Shown piece by piece: positions 10,644-51,127 of a DNA stretch of 64,000 nt. This DNA comes from an uncultured Lactobacillales bacterium (GTDB lineage: Bacteria; Pseudomonadota; Alphaproteobacteria; CAYJES01): positions 17,872-81,871 of the forward strand of contig CAYJES010000003.1 in assembly GCA_964369365.1 (NCBI GenBank), written 5' to 3'. A program made the position numbers and the translations under genes. The notes under the pieces are model-generated. The model was not told where the DNA came from. It saw only the letters and a program-made list of their open reading frames with translations, and ran no database searches. Every line of letters begins with the position of its first letter. Positions within the stretch are counted from its first letter, which is position 1.

Positions 10644-11810
10644 ATGTTTAATATAAAAAAATTATTGACTTTGGTCGCTGTTATTTCAGTTGCTGGTTGC
10701 TCTAGCTCTGATTACTTGTTTTCTGATTCAACAAAAGCAAGTCCTAAGAAAAGACCTGTTGTAAAAGAAAGCACTGTTTACAAAAAAGATGCTAAGGCTA
10801 TTGCTCCTATTGCTGTTGAAAAGCCTGAGCCTGTTAAGCTACCAGAACCTGTAGCAAAACAACCTGTGTCAGTTGCTCAAACCTATGAAACCAGAGATGT
10901 TTCATTACAACATTCTAGCTCTATGAGCTTTGTTACTCAAAAAATTAACACTTTCAAAGGTGAACTTTCTCAACTTAAAAACTCTGTTATTAACAGAACT
11001 AACGAACTTAAAAGCATAAAAGAAAAAATGGCGCAAGATTCAAAAGAATATTATGAAGTTGTTGCAGAAATTAATTCTCGCCTACAAATGGGAACAACTT
11101 CTGGCAACCCTATTTTGAACGCTAAATGGCGTGATGCTACAATGAAACTTGATAAAGTTAGCCAAGACGTTACAGCCATGAACAATCTTGCTTCTAAAAT
11201 TACTGCTGATTCTGGTATGACTACTTATCTACTTGATTCAGTAAGAGCATCTTATAATATATCAGGCGCTGTTGAAGCTGATCATGAAGAATTAAAAGGT
11301 TTAGAAGATGAAACTATTCAAACTGCTGTTCAAAATGAAAGATTGTTAAGCGATGTTAACGAAGATATCGTAAGACAACAAAAATACCTCAGCAATGAAA
11401 AAAGCAACCTTGCTAACCTTGCTGTTGCTATTCGTGATGGTCAACTATACAGCAATGGGGTACCTGGCACTCAATCTATGAAGTACAGAAAAACTCTTAC
11501 AGAAAGTGAAGTTCCATACACTGCAAAGGCTGCTAATGTGCGCAAACCTCTAGTTGAAATTAGATTCACAAAAGAAAATATCGCTTTTGAACAACCTTTA
11601 TATAAAGCAATGCAAAAAGCATTAGAACAAAGACAAGATATTTCATTTGAAATCATTGGCGTTGCTACTCGTCCTGATGTAGCAAAAAGATATGTAAACA
11701 ATGTTACAAAATCTATGATTAATATGGGGGTTCCTGCTAGTCGAATCAAAACTTCCGTTTCTGCTTCTCCTAATACTAGAAGCCCTGAAGTTAAAATATT
11801 CGTGAAATAA
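10644..11810 (+). CDS. lipoprotein with a coiled-coil middle and an OmpA/MotB-like C-terminal domain
   Basis: Lipobox LVAVISVAGC. The central region is helical and heptad-like. The C-terminus (...FEIIGVATRPDVAKRYVNNVTKSMINMGVPASRIKTSVSAS...) resembles a peptidoglycan-binding OmpA-like fold. Confidence 0.4.
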   Translation: MFNIKKLLTLVAVISVAGCSSSDYLFSDSTKASPKKRPVVKESTVYKKDAKAIAPIAVEKPEPVKLPEPVAKQPVSVAQTYETRDVSLQHSSSMSFVTQKINTFKGELSQLKNSVINRTNELKSIKEKMAQDSKEYYEVVAEINSRLQMGTTSGNPILNAKWRDATMKLDKVSQDVTAMNNLASKITADSGMTTYLLDSVRASYNISGAVEADHEELKGLEDETIQTAVQNERLLSDVNEDIVRQQKYLSNEKSNLANLAVAIRDGQLYSNGVPGTQSMKYRKTLTESEVPYTAKAANVRKPLVEIRFTKENIAFEQPLYKAMQKALEQRQDISFEIIGVATRPDVAKRYVNNVTKSMINMGVPASRIKTSVSASPNTRSPEVKIFVK

Positions 11811-16184: not shown

Positions 16185-17867
16185 TTATCCTATTCCGTAA
16201 CCATAATAAAATGGTTTTTTATAAACCTTTATTTTGTTAACGTTTGAAAATTCCAATCTGTTCGCTCCATGATATAAAACCCCAGAGTTATCAGGCAATA
16301 CTTTGTTACGATTTTGATACTCTATTAAATCTGAAACGCTCATAAATAATCCGTTTTCAAATTTTACGTTCCATCCATATGTATTATTATCTTCACATTC
16401 TAGGCAAATTGTATCTACACCTTCATCGCCCGAAAAAAATGTATTTTCATGATATGATGAAAAAGCAAAACTTTTTGATTCTATTTCATCAATCTCAATA
16501 TCAGAATTATAATTTGATGGCTTATATTCACCTAATTTTTTAATTTCCATCGATATTTTGGCTGCATTATAAAAATATAATGATGTTGATTTAGGTCCGA
16601 TTAAAATACCATTTTTACCCCCTAAATTAATAACATCTTCGCCTTTTAAATTTATTTCATAAAGCGACATTGATAACAACTTCCACGCATCACTTTTTTC
16701 TGGGAAGGTGAAAGAATCTCCATAGTTTATAGCAATAGATTCATTATTTGTCGTATTTTGCAGTAATCCTAAAGAAAAATTATCATCAGAAGAAAGATTA
16801 AAAATTTCGCCTTTATCCATTTTTATTTCTTGTTCCTGATTATTACAAACAAAAAGCCTCCATCCATTTAATGAAGATGATGAAATTACTATTTCACTTT
16901 CATCACTTCCAAAAAACATTTTAACGCCATCACCTGATTTTATTTCAATCTTATCTTCTTTTTTAGTTTCGGTATTTAGTACAATAGGGAAACTTTCTGA
17001 TTTATTGTCAGATTTAAAGGTTTCGTTACCTTGAGCAACGGTGTCAGTTTTGCTATCTATTTCATCTTTATCTACTATCAAGTTATTTGTTTCTGATTCA
17101 TTTGTGAAAACTTCTTCTTGATTTATTTCAAGAGTGCTTTGTTGAACATTTTCTTTTTCTGGTTCAATCTTTTCCTCTGGCTCAAACTTTCCTTCTATTG
17201 CTACATCTTCAATATCATCTTCGTGCGTATTATTTTCAAATTCTAAATCATCATCTGAAGTAACGTCTAGATCTATTTTATCCTCTTCTTCTACTTTTAT
17301 ATCTTCTGGTGTGTCTATTTTGATGTCATCTACAAAAACATTTTCAGTTAGATTCTTTTCTTCTAGCTCTGATATACTTTCATTTTTATTGGAAGATTCA
17401 AACACAGACTTTTCCTCAGATTTAGATTCATCTAATTCAAGATAATCACTATTTGACGCATCTTCATAATCTTCAGACACTCTATATTTATTTTGAGATA
17501 AATCAAAATGTCCAGCAGAAGATTCTAAATCATCAACATTTTCTTGTAAATATGGGTTAGTCGAAAGTTGTTCAGATTTTTCAGGAACAAATAACACAGA
17601 TGAATCGTCATTTTCAGAAACTTCTGATATTTCTTCATTTTCATTATTTGTTTGTTCGTCATCTTTTTTCGCTGCTAATTGCTCTATTACTGATGACACA
17701 TCTTCATCATAATTTGCAATAGCATCATCAGCATTTAACAATAATTCATCAATAGAATCTACCGAATCGTATTCTTTCTCTTCTGTTTGTAAAGGAGCTT
17801 TCTCCTCTATTTGCTTTTTGCCTTTAAAAGGAGGAGGTTTTGGTATACTTCTTTTTTCTTCGCTCAT
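16185..17867 (-). CDS. hypothetical protein with a highly acidic, low-complexity N-terminal half and a beta-rich C-terminal domain
   Basis: 560 aa. About the first 300 aa are D/E/S-rich. No signal peptide. The start codon is 14 nt after the envZ-like stop. Confidence 0.5.
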   Translation of the reverse strand: MSEEKRSIPKPPPFKGKKQIEEKAPLQTEEKEYDSVDSIDELLLNADDAIANYDEDVSSVIEQLAAKKDDEQTNNENEEISEVSENDDSSVLFVPEKSEQLSTNPYLQENVDDLESSAGHFDLSQNKYRVSEDYEDASNSDYLELDESKSEEKSVFESSNKNESISELEEKNLTENVFVDDIKIDTPEDIKVEEEDKIDLDVTSDDDLEFENNTHEDDIEDVAIEGKFEPEEKIEPEKENVQQSTLEINQEEVFTNESETNNLIVDKDEIDSKTDTVAQGNETFKSDNKSESFPIVLNTETKKEDKIEIKSGDGVKMFFGSDESEIVISSSSLNGWRLFVCNNQEQEIKMDKGEIFNLSSDDNFSLGLLQNTTNNESIAINYGDSFTFPEKSDAWKLLSMSLYEINLKGEDVINLGGKNGILIGPKSTSLYFYNAAKISMEIKKLGEYKPSNYNSDIEIDEIESKSFAFSSYHENTFFSGDEGVDTICLECEDNNTYGWNVKFENGLFMSVSDLIEYQNRNKVLPDNSGVLYHGANRLEFSNVNKIKVYKKPFYYGYGIG

Positions 17868-32838: not shown

Positions 32839-34080
32839 ATGAAAAAAGAATTAGAATCACGAATAAATGCATTTAAAACTTTGTCTGCTGTATTCAAGGG
32901 ACAGAGATTAGATTTTGCAATGGACGATATGCCAATGATGGAAGAACAAGATAAAGCTTTTTCCAGAATGTTGGTCATGACAACCATAAGACGAAATGGC
33001 GAAATTAACGAAATTATTAATGCTCTTGTCAAAAATAAAATTCCTAATCCAAAGGTGGAAGTAATTTTAAAATTAGGTCTTTGTCAGTTGATGTTTTTGG
33101 AAACAGCTGAATATGCAGCGATTAACACAACTGTTGAAATGACTAAAACACTAAAATTGCCTAGGTACAGCTCTTTAGTTAATGGTGTTCTTCGTTCTTT
33201 TCAAAGAAGAAAAGAAGAAATAAAAACGAATCCAATTAACAATATTCCAAACTGGCTTAAAAAACATATTACAGAAGATTTGGGTAAGGATAAATTACAA
33301 CAGATTGCTAATAGTATTTTGACAATACCACCACTTTACCTTACGATTAAAGATAATCCTGCGATGTGGGCAAAAGAATTAGAAGGTATAACTATTTCAA
33401 ACAAAACTATAAAAATTTCTTCGCAGAAAATAAATGATTTAAAAGGGTATGATGAAGGCGAATGGTGGGTGCAAGATTATTCAGCAAGTCTTCCTGTTAC
33501 TTTATTTGGTGAGGATTTAAAAGGCAAAGAAGTTGCTGATTTTTGTTCTGCCCCTGGTGGCAAAACTGCGCAACTTGCAACGATGGGGGCTAATGTTACT
33601 GCTTTTGATATTTCGGCAAAACGAATCGAAACAATGAAAGAGAATTTTAAAAGGTTAAATATAAATCCAATGATTGTTAATGATGATGCTAGCAAATATC
33701 TTGCTAAAAACCCAAAACAATTTGATTATATTTTACTTGATGCACCTTGCTCTGCGGTTGGAACTGTGCGAAGAAATCCTGATATATTACTTAAAAATTC
33801 TTTTTCTTTACCTACTGCTGAACAAGAAAAATTGTTAAATACCGCTTTTACCAACCTTAAAAAAGGAGGAAGAATTGTTTATGCTGTTTGCTCTTTCCTA
33901 AGCAAAGAAGGCGAAAAACAAATTGATAAATTCATAAGCAAAAATAAAAATGCTAAAAAAATTCCTGTAAAATTAGATAATAAAATAACATGCAATGACA
34001 ATATGCTCATCACTCCTGATTATATGATAGAGCATGGTGGGGTTGATGGATTTTTTGCTGCTGTAATTGAAAAAATATAA
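32839..34080 (+). CDS. rsmB: 16S rRNA m5C methyltransferase RsmB/Sun
   Basis: NusB-like N-terminus; SAM-binding motif DFCSAPGGKT; catalytic DAPCSAVGTVRRNPD. Confidence 0.8.
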   Translation: MKKELESRINAFKTLSAVFKGQRLDFAMDDMPMMEEQDKAFSRMLVMTTIRRNGEINEIINALVKNKIPNPKVEVILKLGLCQLMFLETAEYAAINTTVEMTKTLKLPRYSSLVNGVLRSFQRRKEEIKTNPINNIPNWLKKHITEDLGKDKLQQIANSILTIPPLYLTIKDNPAMWAKELEGITISNKTIKISSQKINDLKGYDEGEWWVQDYSASLPVTLFGEDLKGKEVADFCSAPGGKTAQLATMGANVTAFDISAKRIETMKENFKRLNINPMIVNDDASKYLAKNPKQFDYILLDAPCSAVGTVRRNPDILLKNSFSLPTAEQEKLLNTAFTNLKKGGRIVYAVCSFLSKEGEKQIDKFISKNKNAKKIPVKLDNKITCNDNMLITPDYMIEHGGVDGFFAAVIEKI

Positions 34081-34176
34081 AAATATCTAATAAGAAATTG
34101 GTAAATATTTTTTACTATTGATTTTTCTTACTTTTGTACCTATTTTTATAATAACAAACACACAGGAGATAAAAAA

Positions 34177-34713
34177 ATGAGTAAATATACTTTTGACGGA
34201 ACAACTATTCTTTCAGTTAGAAAAGATGGAGAAGTTGTAATCGCAGGCGACGGACAGGTTACTTTTGGAAACACCGTAATGAAAAGCAATGCTAGAAAAG
34301 TCAGAAGATTAGGTGGAGGTAAAATAATTGCTGGATTTGCTGGTTCTACTGCTGATGCATTTACTTTATTCGAAAGACTTGAAGGCAAGCTTGAAAAACA
34401 TTCTGGTCAGCTATTGCGCGCCTGCGTTGAAATGGCAAAAGATTGGAGAACAGACAGATATCTAAGAAAACTTGAAGCTATGATGGCTGTTGCCGATAAA
34501 GATGTTTCCCTAATCCTATCTGGGACCGGCGATGTGTTAGAACCAGAAGAAGGTCTTATTGGTATTGGATCTGGCGGTGCTTTTGCCCTATCTGCGGCTA
34601 AGGCTCTTATAGACCAACCATTAAGCGCTGAAGAAATTGCTAAAAAATCTATGCAAGTTGCTGGCGATATCTGTATATATACTAATCACAATGTCATTAT
34701 CGAAAAATTGTAA
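34177..34713 (+). CDS. hslV: ATP-dependent protease subunit HslV
   Basis: The N-terminus ...[24 protein letters not shown]... carries the Thr nucleophile. 178 aa. Confidence 0.9.
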
Positions 34714-34715
34714 TT

Positions 34716-35558
34716 ATGAAAATTGTTAAAGTCCAAGGAGGGCTCGGCAACCAATTATTTCAATATGCTTTTTACAAAGCTTTACAAAAGTATAATTCAA
34801 ATAAAGATATTTATCTTGATAAGAGTTTGTATGAAACAGACACTTTCCGTAAGTATGGCTTAGATCATTTTAATACACAAATAAATATAGCAACAGAAAA
34901 ACAAATAAAAAAAATTAAAAACAATAAAGGTTTTCGCATATTTTTTAGACTTTTTTATAAAAACTTTAAAACTGGCTTGTTCGGAATATATCAACCCGAA
35001 GTATTTGAAGAGAAAAGACATGTTTATTACCAAGGATATTTTCAAACAGAAAAATATTTTTCTGACATAAAAGAAGAAATTATTAAAGATTTGCAGTTAA
35101 AAAATCCTATCAACGATACAAATAAAAAAATGATTGAGTTGATGACATCTTGTAACTCTGTCTCTTTGCATATAAGACGCGGAGATTATGTTGAGCTAGA
35201 AGATATTCATGGTTTATGCAATTTAGATTATTACAATAATGCCCTTAAAATAATAAAAGAAAAGGTGAAAAATCCTAAAATTTTCGTTTTTTCTGATGAT
35301 TTAAAATGGTGCAAAGAAAATTTAAATAAAGATATACCTATGACCTTTGTTGATATTAATGATGATAGTACAAATTACCTTGATTTAAACTTAATGCGAA
35401 ATTGCAAGCATAATATTATTGCAAATTCTACTTTTTCTTGGTGGGGAGCATGGCTTAACACAAATCAAAATAAAATAGTAATTGCTCCTAAGATTTGGCA
35501 CAAAAAATACCAACATAAATTTAAGGATATTATACCAGAATCTTGGATACGCCTATAA
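34716..35558 (+). CDS. glycosyltransferase family 11 alpha-1,2-fucosyltransferase
   Basis: All three GT11 hallmark motifs are present: GGLGNQLFQYA, LHIRRGDYV and NSTFSWWGAWL. It starts 2 nt after the hslV stop. Confidence 0.8.
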   Translation: MKIVKVQGGLGNQLFQYAFYKALQKYNSNKDIYLDKSLYETDTFRKYGLDHFNTQINIATEKQIKKIKNNKGFRIFFRLFYKNFKTGLFGIYQPEVFEEKRHVYYQGYFQTEKYFSDIKEEIIKDLQLKNPINDTNKKMIELMTSCNSVSLHIRRGDYVELEDIHGLCNLDYYNNALKIIKEKVKNPKIFVFSDDLKWCKENLNKDIPMTFVDINDDSTNYLDLNLMRNCKHNIIANSTFSWWGAWLNTNQNKIVIAPKIWHKKYQHKFKDIIPESWIRL

Positions 35559-35562
35559 ATAA

Positions 35563-36357
35563 TTAAGCTGTGAATGTGAATATAGTAGCAGATCCGTTAG
35601 CCTTTGCTGCATTCGCATTTAAAATATTAGTCATACTTGCCGCGCCTGCCTCAAGAAGTGTTGCTGCTGCTTGACCTTGCATAATCAAAGAATTAGTAGT
35701 GGCGTTATCAAGTAACCCTTGAACTTCTTCTGAATATAAAGATCCTCCTGATAGGGCCTCTTCTATTGCAAGTTCTGCTTTATCTTGTTCTGATAAATTA
35801 AGAGAACTTTCCACTGTTGCAAAATCGTATTTAAACGAATCGCCCATCTGGAATTGTAAAATGTAATTAATGTCTTCTTTTGGTGGTTCTCCAGTTTCTG
35901 TCGTTACTTTTACATAATATTCGCCAGTAGCTTGAGTGTCCAAGGTTCCACGAACAAGGTGTTCAAAATTTGCATAAGCAGTTTCATTTTCTTTATCGTT
36001 AGAGGCAACAACATTCATTCTGCCTCCTTGATTTTGATAAAATTCTATCCTGAGTCCTGCACCACTAAAATATTCAACCACATCTTCAAAGTATGTTTCG
36101 CTTTCAGGATCAAGTTCCAAATCCGTTTCTGCATCGGTTTGAACAGACATACGCAAATCACCCTTTGTCTGCACAAACATTTTATACCAATCCGCTTTGT
36201 CATCATCATTAGCGCTTAGTGAAGATATCACACTTATACGGCTGTGATCTTTGCGGATATATCCCATATCCCTTGCGCTGCCCCAACTTTCGCCGTGAAC
36301 ATCTTGAGTTTGCTTTTCCATTAATTGCGGAGCGCGAATTGCACCAATTGAAGACAT
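35563..36357 (-). CDS. hypothetical acidic protein with an Ala/Thr/Asn-rich C-terminus
   Basis: 264 aa, no signal peptide, no recognisable domain. Convergent with the GT11 gene. Confidence 0.4.
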   Translation of the reverse strand: MSSIGAIRAPQLMEKQTQDVHGESWGSARDMGYIRKDHSRISVISSLSANDDDKADWYKMFVQTKGDLRMSVQTDAETDLELDPESETYFEDVVEYFSGAGLRIEFYQNQGGRMNVVASNDKENETAYANFEHLVRGTLDTQATGEYYVKVTTETGEPPKEDINYILQFQMGDSFKYDFATVESSLNLSEQDKAELAIEEALSGGSLYSEEVQGLLDNATTNSLIMQGQAAATLLEAGAASMTNILNANAAKANGSATIFTFTA

Positions 36358-36460
36358 TTTATATTCCCCTTAATTTTTCTTTTCGTAATAATTTTACCAT
36401 AATTTATTAAAAAAAGCAAATTTTGTGCCAAACCGCTGTTTTAAAGGTTTTTCTAATTTT

Positions 36461-46918: not shown

Positions 46919-47782
46919 ATGGAAAAAATAAATCTAAATATTGATGAAACTAGGCAAAAAGCCATTAACTTTGTCACAACATCGTGGCAAGCTTATGAAA
47001 TAAATGAAAAATATCCTGTTAAAGATTATGATTCTTTGATTAATAATGCATTTAATGATCTTGTTGCTGATAAAGATAAATATCCGATGATGATGCGTAT
47101 TTGTGGGCAATCGGGAAGCGGTAAATCCACCCAACTATTGCCTGCTGCAAAAGAAGGATTCAAAATGTTTAATGTTAATCCTATTTGTGTTGCAGTACGA
47201 AATTTTGCGCCATACCATCCTTATTATAATGAAATAAAAGAAAAATATGGTGAAGATATGTTAAGGGAAAACACCAATGGTTTTGCCTTACTGTTATTAT
47301 TTTTAACTTTAGAAAAATTGATTATTTCCGGATATCCTATTATTTTTGAAGTTACACTTCTTGATAGTTATTTCGAGCTATATTTTGCTGAACTTGCTAA
47401 AAAATATAATTACCATATTGATTACCACCTGATTTCTGTTTCAAAAAATCAATCTGATAGATGGATTGATGAACGTAAAATATTTTCAGAGGTTGAAAAA
47501 AATCGAATCGTTGCAACTAGTTCTTCTGATTATTTTTATAAAGCTCTGCCTATTGCTATCGAATCGTTACAAAACATAGAAAATAGCAATAAATGTTATA
47601 TATGGAATGGATATCAAAACGAACCTGTTTATAGCGGTTTATTGTCTGATAAGAAAGTATTGCAAAACCTTAGACAATTTCAAAAAGAAACTTTTGCCCC
47701 TAAAAATCCTGATGAATTAAGAATGGCAAAAATAAGTTGGTTCAAAAAACACTATTCATCCAAATTAAGCGCTACGTCGTAG
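46919..47782 (+). CDS. zeta-toxin-family P-loop kinase-like protein
   Basis: Walker A [32 protein letters not shown] aligns with zeta [23 protein letters not shown], and GYPIIFEVT with GYNLVIEGT (zeta sequence from memory). Monocistronic. Confidence 0.5.
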   Translation: [287 protein letters not shown]

Positions 47783-48606
47783 ACCATTTTCTTTTTAATA
47801 TCTAATAATTTTGCGACATGGGAAATTGCTTGTTTTTTATCCATATTTTTAAGATTTTTAGAAAGCTCTGATGTTATTAATTCCGGCGTTACTTCTTGTT
47901 TTTGTTTTATTATTTCCATAAGTAAAACTATTTCGCCTTTTATCGCAGGTTTTTCGGTGTAATGCTTTATTAAATTTGAAATAGAATCAGTAGTTACCTC
48001 TTCGAATTTTTTGGTAAGTTCCCTTGCAATGCATACTCTGATATCGCCAAAAACCTCTAACGCTAGTGAAAGTGTTGCAAGAATTCTTGGGGCTGTTTCA
48101 TAAAAAATTACGGTTGTGTCATCATAATTTTTTATTTTTTCAAACAACCTTTGTTTTTCCCCCGATTTCACAGGTAAAAATCCTTTAAATAAAAACGAAT
48201 CCGAAGCAAGACCAGATAATTGTAATGCAGTTATAACGGCACAGGCTCCTGGAATGGAAGTTACATAAATATCTTGCTCTTTACATTCTGATACTAATTT
48301 ATGACCTGGGTCGTTGATAAGAGGGCTGCCTGCATCTGATATTAACGCTATGCTTTTTCCTGATTTTATCGCATCTATTATACTTGGGATAACTTTTGTT
48401 GCATTGTGATCGTGATAACTGATTAATTTTTTTGAAATTTGATAGTAATTAAGCAAGGTTTTGCTGGTTCTTGTGTCTTCGCAAGCTATGATATCGACAC
48501 TTTTCAAAGTTTCAATAGCGCGCAAAGAAAAATCGCCCAAATTGCCAATAGGGGTTGCAACTATATATAATCCTGCTATTAATATATTATCATTTTTCTG
48601 TTTCAT
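47752..48606 (-). CDS. rsmI: 16S rRNA (cytidine1402-2'-O)-methyltransferase RsmI
   Basis: Tetrapyrrole-methylase fold N-terminus: LYIVATPIGNLGDFSLRAIETLKSVDIIACEDTRTS. Confidence 0.85.
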   Translation of the reverse strand: MKQKNDNILIAGLYIVATPIGNLGDFSLRAIETLKSVDIIACEDTRTSKTLLNYYQISKKLISYHDHNATKVIPSIIDAIKSGKSIALISDAGSPLINDPGHKLVSECKEQDIYVTSIPGACAVITALQLSGLASDSFLFKGFLPVKSGEKQRLFEKIKNYDDTTVIFYETAPRILATLSLALEVFGDIRVCIARELTKKFEEVTTDSISNLIKHYTEKPAIKGEIVLLMEIIKQKQEVTPELITSELSKNLKNMDKKQAISHVAKLLDIKKKMVYDVALNLDE

Positions 48607-48624
48607 AATAAGGAGATTATAGAA

Positions 48625-50106
48625 GTGTTTAATTCACGTGTAAAACATTTATTTTTTATTGGGCTTATTTTTCTTGCTGCGTGTAAAGGAACTGGGGTTG
48701 TTTACGAACCTTCTGCTGATTCAAGCCCAAGGATTATAACGCCTGCCAACGCGTATGAAAATAATATTGAAACAATAGAAGAAAATAATTTTAGTTCAGG
48801 ATACGAAGAAGAAAGTGCAAATAAAAAAACTAAATCAGACTTGAGAGTAGGAATCCTTGCGCCGTTTTCTGGTGACTATGAAAAACTTGGGACTGCTATT
48901 AAAAATACCGCATTAATGGCTCTTTATGAAATATCTTCTGAAAACGTTGTGGTTCAATTTTATGATACAAAAGGAACAGAAGAAGGCGCTTATGACGCTG
49001 CTTATGAAGCAATAAATCAAAATGTAGATATTATCATTGGTCCTGTATTTTCACATGAAGTTGCCGCTATTAGAGGAATTACAAACAGTGCAGGAATCGA
49101 TGTTCTTGCGTTTACTTCTGATCCATACGTTTTAGGTGGAAATATTTATACATTAGCCCTATTACTTCCGCAACAAATTGATAGAATTATTAATTATGCA
49201 TGTAGAAATGGGAAAAAGAATTTTGCAATCCTTACACATGATTCTGATTTTGGAAGAATTGCTGTCGAATCGGCTGAAAACGCTGTTTTAAAATGCGATA
49301 ATGATGCAGCCATTTTAAATATTGGTTACTACTCTCCTAAACAAGGCGATATGGTATCGGTGGTTAAAGGTTTAACAGGAGACAGAAGTGTTTTCGTCGA
49401 CAACCTGCGTAAAAAACAAAAAGGTGAAGGTAATTATGCAGAAGGAGTTAACCTTGGTTATGATGAAGAAATCGATATTTTAACTGTATATAAATCATCA
49501 GAAGACATTCCTTTGGATTTTGACGCACTTTTAATTGCTGATGAAGGTGCTAATCTTCGTGCGCTTGCCGCTGTTTTAAATTATTATGACATTACAAATG
49601 ACGAAGTTATGTTCTTAGGCACTCAACAATGGTCTGATCCTAAACTTGCTCTTGAAAAAGCCCTTGTCGGCGGATATTATCCTGAAATTCCAGTTACAGG
49701 ATTCAGCGATTATGCAAAAAGATATCGTGAAGTCTATAAAAGCGTTCCTCCTAGAATAGCAAGTCAAGCTTATGATGGTATTGCTCTTATATCTGTTCTT
49801 GCTAGAAATAACGACTTTTCAGCCGAGGCTATTACTGATGCTTCTGGCTTTGCTGGGGTTGATGGAATTTTTAGGTTACTTGAAAATGGACATTCTCAAC
49901 GTGGTATGGCTATTATGGAAATGGCACGTCCACAGGCAAAAGTTGTCGAATATTCTCCTAACTCTTTTAATGAAGACGTTACATACGAACAACATTTTAT
50001 AAATGAAACTCCTAATGAAAATATAGTTGTAAACGAAGAGCAACTTGAAATTAAAGAAGAAGAAGAAGAAACTAAAAAAAGTTTCCTTAAAGAATGGTTT
50101 CAATAA
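48625..50106 (+). CDS. lipoprotein with a type-1 periplasmic-binding-protein (LivJ/LpoA-like) fold
   Basis: Lipobox LAAC; RVGILAPFSGDYEKLGTAIKNTALMALYE is typical of Peripla_BP_6-like proteins. Confidence 0.45.
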   Translation: MFNSRVKHLFFIGLIFLAACKGTGVVYEPSADSSPRIITPANAYENNIETIEENNFSSGYEEESANKKTKSDLRVGILAPFSGDYEKLGTAIKNTALMALYEISSENVVVQFYDTKGTEEGAYDAAYEAINQNVDIIIGPVFSHEVAAIRGITNSAGIDVLAFTSDPYVLGGNIYTLALLLPQQIDRIINYACRNGKKNFAILTHDSDFGRIAVESAENAVLKCDNDAAILNIGYYSPKQGDMVSVVKGLTGDRSVFVDNLRKKQKGEGNYAEGVNLGYDEEIDILTVYKSSEDIPLDFDALLIADEGANLRALAAVLNYYDITNDEVMFLGTQQWSDPKLALEKALVGGYYPEIPVTGFSDYAKRYREVYKSVPPRIASQAYDGIALISVLARNNDFSAEAITDASGFAGVDGIFRLLENGHSQRGMAIMEMARPQAKVVEYSPNSFNEDVTYEQHFINETPNENIVVNEEQLEIKEEEEETKKSFLKEWFQ

Positions 50107-51127
50107 TATAATTATTTAAAAGCATCCCTTTTAAAGTTGGGTAAATCTTGTCATTTTTAATTTCAAGATAACCATTATTTATAAACATTGATGCTTTTTG
50201 CTGGTTCAAACTATCTAAGTATGTAATGTCAATTCCTTCTGCTAGACGAAGACCCATTAATATTTTTTCATAAAAAGCTTCTTTTTCATCAAGAATCTCT
50301 TCTGTGAAATTTTGTGAGTGCAGCCATTTTTTTACATCATTTTCATAAATAATTGCTTTACCATTAACTCTGGAATGAGCAGAAGGACCTATTCCTAAAT
50401 AATTTTGATAATGCCAATATGCAAGGTTGTGTTTACTTTCGAATCCATTTTTAGCAAAATTAGAAATTTCATAATGATTATAATTTTTTGAATTTCTATG
50501 ATTAATAATGAACATTTTTTCACATTCATCATCACTAGGCAATTCAACCTTCCAGCCGTTTTCAATGGTTAATTGATACATTGATAAATGAGGCAAATCT
50601 AAGGATAAAATTTTATTTAATTCTTTTTTCCACATTGCTGATGATTGGTTTGGACGTCCATAAATAAAATCAGCAGAAATATTTTTAAAATATTTTTTTG
50701 CAATATCTATTGTTTCTAAGGCTTGTTTAGATGAATGTAATCGTCCCATTACTTTTAAGTCATCATCGTTTAATGCTTGAATTCCTATTGAAATCCTGTT
50801 TATGCCTATATCTTTAAAGAAACGCATTTTATTTTCATCGACAGTAGCAGGGTTAATTTCAATAGAAATTTCATCGCATGCTGACAAATCTATCTTTTTA
50901 AAAATAGCTGTAAGTAAATTTTCTGATATTAATGAAGGAGTGCCTCCCCCTATAAAAAAAGTTTTTATATTAGATTGGCCTAACAACTCTTTATGCTGTT
51001 CAAAACTGTTGAAATAGGCATTTTCTAAGCCTTCTGCGTTTGAACCTGCAATACTTACAAAATCGCAATAATTGCATTTTTTAAGGCAAAAAGGATAATG
51101 AAGGTAAAGTGCTATATCTTTTTTCAT
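50087..51127 (-). CDS. hemW: radical SAM heme chaperone HemW (HemN-like)
   Basis: LYLHYPFCLKKCNYCDF radical-SAM CxxxCxxC. 346 aa. Confidence 0.85.
   Translation of the reverse strand: MKKDIALYLHYPFCLKKCNYCDFVSIAGSNAEGLENAYFNSFEQHKELLGQSNIKTFFIGGGTPSLISENLLTAIFKKIDLSACDEISIEINPATVDENKMRFFKDIGINRISIGIQALNDDDLKVMGRLHSSKQALETIDIAKKYFKNISADFIYGRPNQSSAMWKKELNKILSLDLPHLSMYQLTIENGWKVELPSDDECEKMFIINHRNSKNYNHYEISNFAKNGFESKHNLAYWHYQNYLGIGPSAHSRVNGKAIIYENDVKKWLHSQNFTEEILDEKEAFYEKILMGLRLAEGIDITYLDSLNQQKASMFINNGYLEIKNDKIYPTLKGMLLNNYIIETIL

Follow-up and report, generated by a model that had tools for sequence, protein, structure and literature searches.

A GT11-family fucosyltransferase gene fills the spacer behind an hslV gene already separated from hslU in an AT-rich alphaproteobacterial lineage

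How does a gene for a glycosyltransferase family 11 (GT11) fucosyltransferase come to stand immediately behind hslV, the gene for the proteolytic subunit of the HslVU protease, where the partner gene hslU would be expected? The question is raised by a 64,000-nucleotide (nt) stretch of contig CAYJES010000003.1 from the alphaproteobacterial assembly GCA_964369365.1, referred to here as the window. A preliminary description had placed such a gene 2 nt after hslV and had noted in it all three hallmark motifs of the family. Both observations were borne out: the TAA stop codon of hslV ends at position 34713 and the ATG of the GT11 gene lies at 34716, which leaves a gap of 2 nt, and the family assignment was confirmed by a PF01531 match. 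Taking all of the evidence together, we consider it likely that a functional-looking GT11 gene was gained by one AT-rich alphaproteobacterial lineage, where it filled an intergenic spacer exactly, replaced no hslU gene, would be expressed by read-through from the hslV promoter, and would act in the fucosylation of a surface glycan.

The position of the gene is best understood by comparison with relatives in which hslV also stands without hslU. In L001 and L002 (GCA_028748505/545), L005 (GCA_964370055), and L006 (GCA_964368695), rsmB and hslV are followed by a convergent gene for a 257- to 261-amino-acid (aa) ortholog of the acidic protein that is encoded after GT11 in the window; in L091 (GCA_028748585), hslV is followed by a convergent LppC-like gene. 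The window, L005, and L006 also have a wider neighborhood in common, with infB-ylxR-nusA-rimP at one end and cvpA-radA-mlaF-mlaE-dnaB at the opposite end. DNA alignment showed that the 843-bp GT11 open reading frame (ORF) replaces a spacer of 32 to 52 bp in L001, L002, L005, and L006 (the corresponding gap in L091 is 54 bp) and that neither of the genes flanking it, hslV and the acidic gene, is truncated; the end of the acidic ORF lies 4 nt from the GT11 stop codon. Neither GT11 nor hslU was found downstream of hslV in L001, L002, L005, L006, or L091. Gene order at hslV in these relatives therefore places GT11 in the window lineage only, and it also shows that hslU had become uncoupled from hslV throughout the clade before GT11 arrived.

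The spacers themselves are ordinary or carry signals of their own. Hairpins were predicted in the spacers of L005 (8321-8352; -20.4 kcal/mol, z = -5.5; e.g., GGGGCUAGUUAACUAGCCCU) and L006 (2735-2786; -14.9 kcal/mol, z = -3.4). Both are GC-rich palindromes with flanking A and T runs, located between the convergent hslV and acidic genes, and they look like bidirectional terminators. No comparable hairpin was present in L001 or L091 or at either GT11 junction in the window.

hslV and hslU parted before GT11 was inserted, and did so independently of it, because the close relatives that have no GT11 also have no hslU after hslV and the canonical order was found only in distant relatives. In these (L007, L008/L009, L090, and L095), the order is rho-hisB-hslV-hslU, with hslU overlapping hslV by 4 nt, and HslV is 78 to 83% identical in the codon alignment; L008/L009 are from the human gut, and the protein is named from 'Acetobacter sp. 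CAG:977'. Unlike this canonical hslVU operon of gut and rumen relatives, hslV of the window clade stands beside rsmB with no hslU after it and, in the window, with GT11 after it. Across the whole clade, hslV has thus been uncoupled from hslU and moved beside rsmB and rimP-nusA-infB. The absence of hslU downstream in the window, as the preliminary description had it, was upheld for all 64 kb: when two genuine HslU proteins of relatives served as tblastn queries, the best E value was 0.76, an Escherichia coli HslU query found no hslU either, and no HslU-type AAA_2 domain (PF07724) was matched in a Pfam scan of the 51 window ORFs of at least 150 aa. The gene is therefore nonadjacent in five lineages and outside the 64 kb in the window. 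In two gut-type relatives, rsmI-lppC-hemN lies a few kilobases downstream of hslVU-gidB-parAB (L007, 18067-20543; L090, 8523-11494). The window has rsmI-lppC-hemN at 47752-51127 without adjoining hslVU, gidB, or parAB and with a zeta-toxin gene (46919-47782) upstream instead; this difference in context indicates that the ancestral hslVU neighborhood has been rearranged.

Membership of the window protein in GT11 is solid on the grounds of its profile match and conserved residues. Enzymes of this family depend on GDP-L-fucose and typically transfer fucose in alpha-1,2 linkage onto terminal galactose. The match to PF01531 (Glyco_transf_11) had an E value of 2.2e-35 and a score of 122.8 bits (gathering score, 23.9), with residues 4 to 278 covering profile positions 35 to 295 of 298. 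The three motifs are GGLGNQLFQYA (aa 8-18, nt 34737-34769), HIRRGDY (aa 152-158, nt 35169-35189), and STFSWWGAWL (aa 238-247, nt 35427-35456); the C-terminal family motif in its longer form, NS.FSWWGAWL, spans aa 237-248. When the protein was aligned with its 119 best homologs, all of the positions conserved at ≥90% (56/56) were kept, and it departed from only one column conserved at ≥80%. Among the 120 sequences in all, residues H152, R154, and R155 of the HxRRxD motif (H152-I-R154-R155-G-D157-Y158) were invariant, as were the columns of G9, G11, N12, Q13, N237, S238, F240, W242, W243, and A245. The first Arg of HxRRxD is critical in WbsJ, and the motif is common to GT11 and the alpha-6 fucosyltransferases (PMC4202792).

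An AlphaFold2 (AF2) model built on the homolog alignment (predicted local distance difference test score [pLDDT], 93.2; predicted template modeling score [pTM], 0.91) predicts a GT-B-type fucosyltransferase fold. Its 37 best Foldseek matches in the PDB (E values of 5e-7 to 1e-5; template modeling score, about 0.5) are to FUT8, NodZ, POFUT1/2, and AtFUT1, all of which are GDP-fucose fucosyltransferases. These best structural matches belong to other CAZy families (GT23, GT65, GT68, and GT37) and are just 8 to 15% identical to the window protein in sequence; sequence and fold searches of the PDB turned up no GT11 structure. A review of mammalian and bacterial glycosyltransferases describes GT11 enzymes as inverting, metal independent, and reliant on the first Arg of HxRRxD, with a predicted GT-B fold and no DxD motif (PMC4202792). 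The bacterial members FutC of Helicobacter pylori and WbsJ, WbwK, and WbiQ of E. coli O128, O86, and O127, respectively, have in common with the window protein PF01531, GGLGNQ, HxRRxD, and SxFSWWGAWL, a length of about 280 to 300 aa, solubility, the lack of DxD, and a predicted GT-B-type fold. Unlike the FutC/WbsJ-type enzymes, the window protein is encoded outside any O-antigen, lipooligosaccharide (LOS), or capsule cluster, by an orphan gene with hslV on one flank and an ORF for a hypothetical protein on the other, and no sequence among 5.8 billion is more than about 50% identical to it.

The donor, acceptor, and linkage of the putative enzyme would be those typical of its family, namely, GDP-fucose, terminal galactose, and alpha-1,2, which would give an H-antigen-type product. 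Several observations weigh against such a specific assignment. The linkage cannot be read from family membership, since GT11 also holds an alpha-1,3-fucosyltransferase, Hh0072 of Helicobacter hepaticus, which has the three conserved motifs in common with the window protein and a linkage off the family norm (PMC4202792). Furthermore, no GDP-mannose dehydratase or epimerase domain (gmd/fcl) and no other glycosyltransferase gene were found among the ORFs of at least 150 aa in the 64 kb, so that GT11 is an orphan gene within this stretch, just as it had been called a lone fucosyltransferase. It is accordingly possible, if on balance unlikely, that the protein is a GT11 member of a different kind, with another linkage (e.g., alpha-1,3, as in Hh0072), a related GDP-6-deoxyhexose as the donor, or an unusual acceptor. 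Acceptor specificity in GT11 is set by C-terminal motifs (PMC4202792), the protein is distant from everything in the collection, no characterized enzyme was identified among its named top matches, and the window offers no GDP-fucose genes; however, nearly all of those named matches are annotated at the source, by automatic naming, as alpha-1,2-fucosyltransferases, and every family-conserved residue has been kept. If the protein does act as a surface-glycan fucosyltransferase, it can be envisioned as a soluble, basic, cytoplasmic enzyme that would add fucose to a lipid-linked precursor of a surface glycan, such as a lipopolysaccharide (LPS)/LOS or capsule unit. LPS/LOS is a plausible target because the window encodes MlaE and its ATPase, which are outer-membrane lipid-transport components.

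How the gene would be expressed is suggested by the sequence around it. Upstream of hslV, an alignment of the window, L001, L005, L006, and L091 revealed a promoter-like element, TATTG[A/C]TTTTT, 13 variable nt, and C[C/T]TAT[C/T]TT, both blocks of which are invariant in the five lineages. Since synonymous sites are saturated among these same lineages (proportion of synonymous differences [pS], 0.67 to 0.80), this conservation suggests function. Both blocks are similar to the proteobacterial RpoH consensus, with TTGAA at -35 and CnATnT at -10, and hslVU is RpoH induced in Proteobacteria (PMC9866376); the RpoH control of the canonical operon has a possible counterpart in the sigma-32-like element of the window, and we tentatively regard the hslV promoter as being of the sigma-32 type. 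Against this assignment, the bare sigma-32-like pattern, which is short and degenerate, occurs in the AT-rich window at the frequency expected by chance from shuffled sequences, so that the case for a promoter rests on conservation; in addition, the element could not be aligned with the regions upstream of hslV in hisB-hslVU relatives. No Shine-Dalgarno sequence precedes GT11, and a scan for sigma-70 promoters and terminators gave no credible signal at either GT11 junction. Given the 2-nt gap and the lack of its own Shine-Dalgarno sequence, promoter, or terminator, GT11 is most likely cotranscribed with hslV, by read-through from the conserved and possibly sigma-32-type promoter, and would be translated by coupling to hslV.

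Where did the gene come from? The five lineages with a lone hslV were monophyletic in 99% of HslV neighbor-joining bootstraps, and the window was sister to the other four in just 0.3% of them. Because the window is nested (99.7%), explaining the absence of GT11 elsewhere by loss would require at least two independent exact deletions, compared with one gain. The best nonself homologs of the protein in 5.8 billion protein clusters, a collection that includes the assemblies of the relatives, are 45 to 51% identical; the nearest named matches are scattered among phyla of the candidate phyla radiation (CPR), Bacteroidota, Campylobacterota, Zixibacteria, and Melainabacteria, together with one alphaproteobacterial metagenome-assembled genome (MAG), and in a neighbor-joining tree of GT11 the window protein forms a lone branch. 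GT11 genes that are 30 to 40% identical occur on plasmids and in phages, which indicates that the family is mobile in general. We conclude that GT11 is most likely a lineage-specific gain of horizontal origin; the earlier proposal of horizontal acquisition is thereby supported as the most likely one, by the presence of the gene at this site in one of five lineages and by its scattered homologs.

The sole named alphaproteobacterial GT11 among the top matches (46% identical) is that of the MAG GCA_017392345 (L092, 372-1858), where the gene follows a hexapeptide acyltransferase gene and lies beside rpsA, adk, and corA. This suggests that GT11 genes in this group may repeatedly lie beside housekeeping genes rather than in large glycan clusters.

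Base composition speaks less clearly. The GT11 gene had been described as even more AT rich than its neighbors, which is correct for its total GC content (26.8%, the second lowest of 51 ORFs; z = -1.96) but does not extend to its GC content at third codon positions (GC3), for which the gene value and the window mean are both 22.4% (z = 0.01), or to its codon-usage distance of 0.216, which is below the window mean of 0.250. The first two codon positions account for the low GC content, so that amino acid composition is its source. A recent horizontal transfer inferred from composition was considered and rejected, as the comparison of GC3 and codon usage with those of the window shows a host-like gene with no sign of recent arrival; any transfer is either old, with full amelioration, or from a donor of similar AT richness.

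This lack of compositional support, which follows from the host-like GC3 and codon usage, is one of several points that count against a horizontal gain. Branching within the clade is poorly resolved, and the sister of the window varies among bootstraps; the clade tree is based on a single marker, HslV, of 178 aa; the contigs of the relatives are fragmentary (1.3 to 9.7 kb), so that a divergent GT11 elsewhere in those genomes is possible; and the surroundings of GT11 showed no repeats, whether direct or inverted, no target-site duplications, and no genes of mobile elements. The same host-like composition, absence of mobile-element scars, and uncertain topology would be expected if GT11 had been ancestral at the site, inherited vertically, and precisely deleted in the other lineages, which are old enough, given their saturated synonymous sites, to have allowed time for losses. 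We nevertheless judge this alternative improbable: it needs at least two exact deletions, the spacers of the relatives are not deletion scars (two carry strong terminator-like hairpins), and no GT11 above about 50% identity was found in a collection that holds the relatives' own assemblies.

Whichever way GT11 arrived, hslV has been conserved without its neighbor. Between the window and the four other clade lineages, hslV is 90 to 96% identical, with a pS of 0.67 to 0.80 and a proportion of nonsynonymous differences (pN) of 0.04 to 0.09 (HslV identity among all clade members, 85 to 96%), whereas protein identity in the same-contig comparison is 57 to 63% for rsmB and 67 to 80% for the acidic gene. 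A pN this low against a saturated pS shows that hslV is under strong purifying selection, long after losing its linkage to hslU. Such conservation suggests that hslU persists elsewhere in the genomes of the clade. When the nearest relative with hslVU was used to seed a search for HslU, canonical HslU proteins of the gut type were all that came back, and no hslU of the clade was located; P0340, the sole NCBI-only HslU candidate examined, lies in a normal hisB-hslVU locus. It seems to us very doubtful that the whole clade lost HslU and kept a stand-alone HslV that acts alone or with another unfoldase, with its stress-type promoter also driving the fucosyltransferase and so tying surface fucosylation to heat shock.

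Even less credit can be given to the proposal, made in the preliminary description, that GT11 sits where hslU is expected and may have displaced it. If GT11 had supplanted hslU within an hslVU operon and thereby caused or accompanied its loss or relocation, the operon-like 2-nt spacing, akin to the 4-nt overlap of hslV and hslU in relatives, and the lack of hslU within 64 kb would be explained; however, the four other clade lineages, with HslV at 90 to 96% identity, have neither gene and carry a convergent gene right after hslV, the hslV gene of the clade lies outside the hisB-hslV-hslU neighborhood altogether, and no hslU-like remnant was seen flanking GT11, all of which makes displacement highly improbable. 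That a metagenome assembly or binning error joined a foreign GT11 segment to this locus is hardly credible, although the source is a single NCBI contig of 90,246 bp, each of the three proteins is a singleton in the collection, and the relatives are MAG-like fragments. Each junction lies within 2 to 4 nt of a clade-specific gene that is intact, GT11 has the GC3 and codon usage of the host, and a chimeric join would not be expected to leave two genes complete with a single ORF fitting exactly between them.

The coordinates of the features at the locus and of the hslV loci of the clade are collected in Table 1. The HslV assignment is secure, with equivalog matches to NF003964 (293 bits; cutoff, 137) and TIGR03692 (282 bits) and an N-terminal catalytic Thr (TTILSVRK after an 8-residue leader). 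For the rsmB product, the NCBIfam RsmB models ranked best yet scored below their own cutoffs. In the HslV searches, a 266-aa 'HslV' on a JGI contig of 2,629 bp (P0123) outscored the query's own sequence through an internal HslV duplication of about 90 residues, which is probably an assembly artifact or a tandem duplication.

Table 1. Positions of features around GT11 in the window and of the hslV loci of the clade
Feature	Position	Strand	Evidence
rsmB (16S rRNA m5C967 methyltransferase)	32839-34080	+	Pfam Methyltr_RsmB-F and NusB
Promoter-like element upstream of hslV	34116-34146	+	Conservation; sigma-32 type tentative
hslV Shine-Dalgarno sequence, AGGAG	34164-34168	+	Direct reading; aligns with AGGAG/GGAG in relatives
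hslV (HslVU protease proteolytic subunit)	34177-34713	+	Intact; NCBIfam equivalogs
GT11 fucosyltransferase homolog, 280 aa, pI 9.3	34716-35558	+	PF01531, motifs, fold, synteny
Convergent acidic protein, 264 aa	35563-36357	-	Clade ortholog; no Pfam/NCBIfam match
Clade hslV locus, window	32839-34713
Clade hslV locus, L001	1280-3131
Clade hslV locus, L005	6480-8320
Clade hslV locus, L006	880-2734
Clade hslV locus, L091	502-1038

The convergent gene after GT11 does encode an acidic hypothetical protein, as had been noted: its isoelectric point (pI) is 4.3, with 43 D+E against 19 K+R residues, and it matched no Pfam or NCBIfam model. Orthologs that are 70 to 77% identical occupy the same position in L001, L005, and L006. 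Its family is small and uncharacterized: a search of 1.84 billion representatives gave 107 at E ≤ 1e-3, most of them 190 to 290 aa long, and ARDIG..R.NYSR, DWYKF, G.YYIKV, and Y.LQ.QMGD.YKHDY are among the conserved motifs. Scans of GTDB-representative genomes and JGI metagenomes with the protein found no relative, so that the clade is missing from these two collections. A single-sequence AF2 model of low confidence (pLDDT, 58.5) predicts a beta-sandwich core and a long C-terminal helix and gave no significant fold match in the PDB. Just past the acidic gene, a HAD-IIA-type hydrolase is encoded in L001 (4039-4920; 293 aa) and in L006 (3740-5134; 464 aa), in the latter between the acidic gene and cvpA; in the window, the corresponding site (36358-36460) is occupied by no more than about 100 bp of spacer, which constitutes a second indel difference at the locus.

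The host had been taken for an intracellular alphaproteobacterium, which the content of the window does not support. Its GC content is 32.9%, and the nearest named genomes by NusA are not Rickettsiales but MAGs of gut and rumen Alphaproteobacteria (65 to 69%), including 'Acetobacter sp. CAG:977', with Hyphomicrobium at about 62%. The window encodes flagellar proteins (FlgK, FlgN, FlgI, and a rod protein), a PAS-GGDEF-EAL protein of cyclic di-GMP signaling, two-component systems, a zeta toxin, and a bundlin-like pilin, and there is no sign of a reduced obligate intracellular bacterium. Six sizeable ORFs lacked any meaningful match to Pfam, also when E values of up to 0.01 were allowed: 599-3082 (-), 7395-9326 (+), 10644-11810 (+), 16185-17867 (-), 57309-58046 (+), and 62206-62961 (-). 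The first of these, of 827 aa, adjoins flgK and flgN and may encode a divergent flagellar protein. An Rfam scan of the 64 kb found no tRNA, rRNA, riboswitch, or other known RNA, with no family reaching its gathering score.

In conclusion, the GT11 gene represents the ordinary case of an accessory gene inserted, in one lineage, into a housekeeping locus, and it is of little significance outside that lineage. It provides a clean, datable case in which a single accessory glycosyltransferase ORF fills the intergenic spacer of such a locus and appears to borrow the promoter and the translation signals of its neighbor. A by-product of the comparison, and a mildly more interesting one, is the recognition of a deep clade whose hslV, although uncoupled from hslU, is under very strong purifying selection. 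For the organism itself, which has bacteria of the gut and rumen as its nearest named relatives, the gene is a hint that its surface may bear fucosylated glycans, like those that Helicobacter and E. coli O-serotypes display by means of family 11 enzymes.

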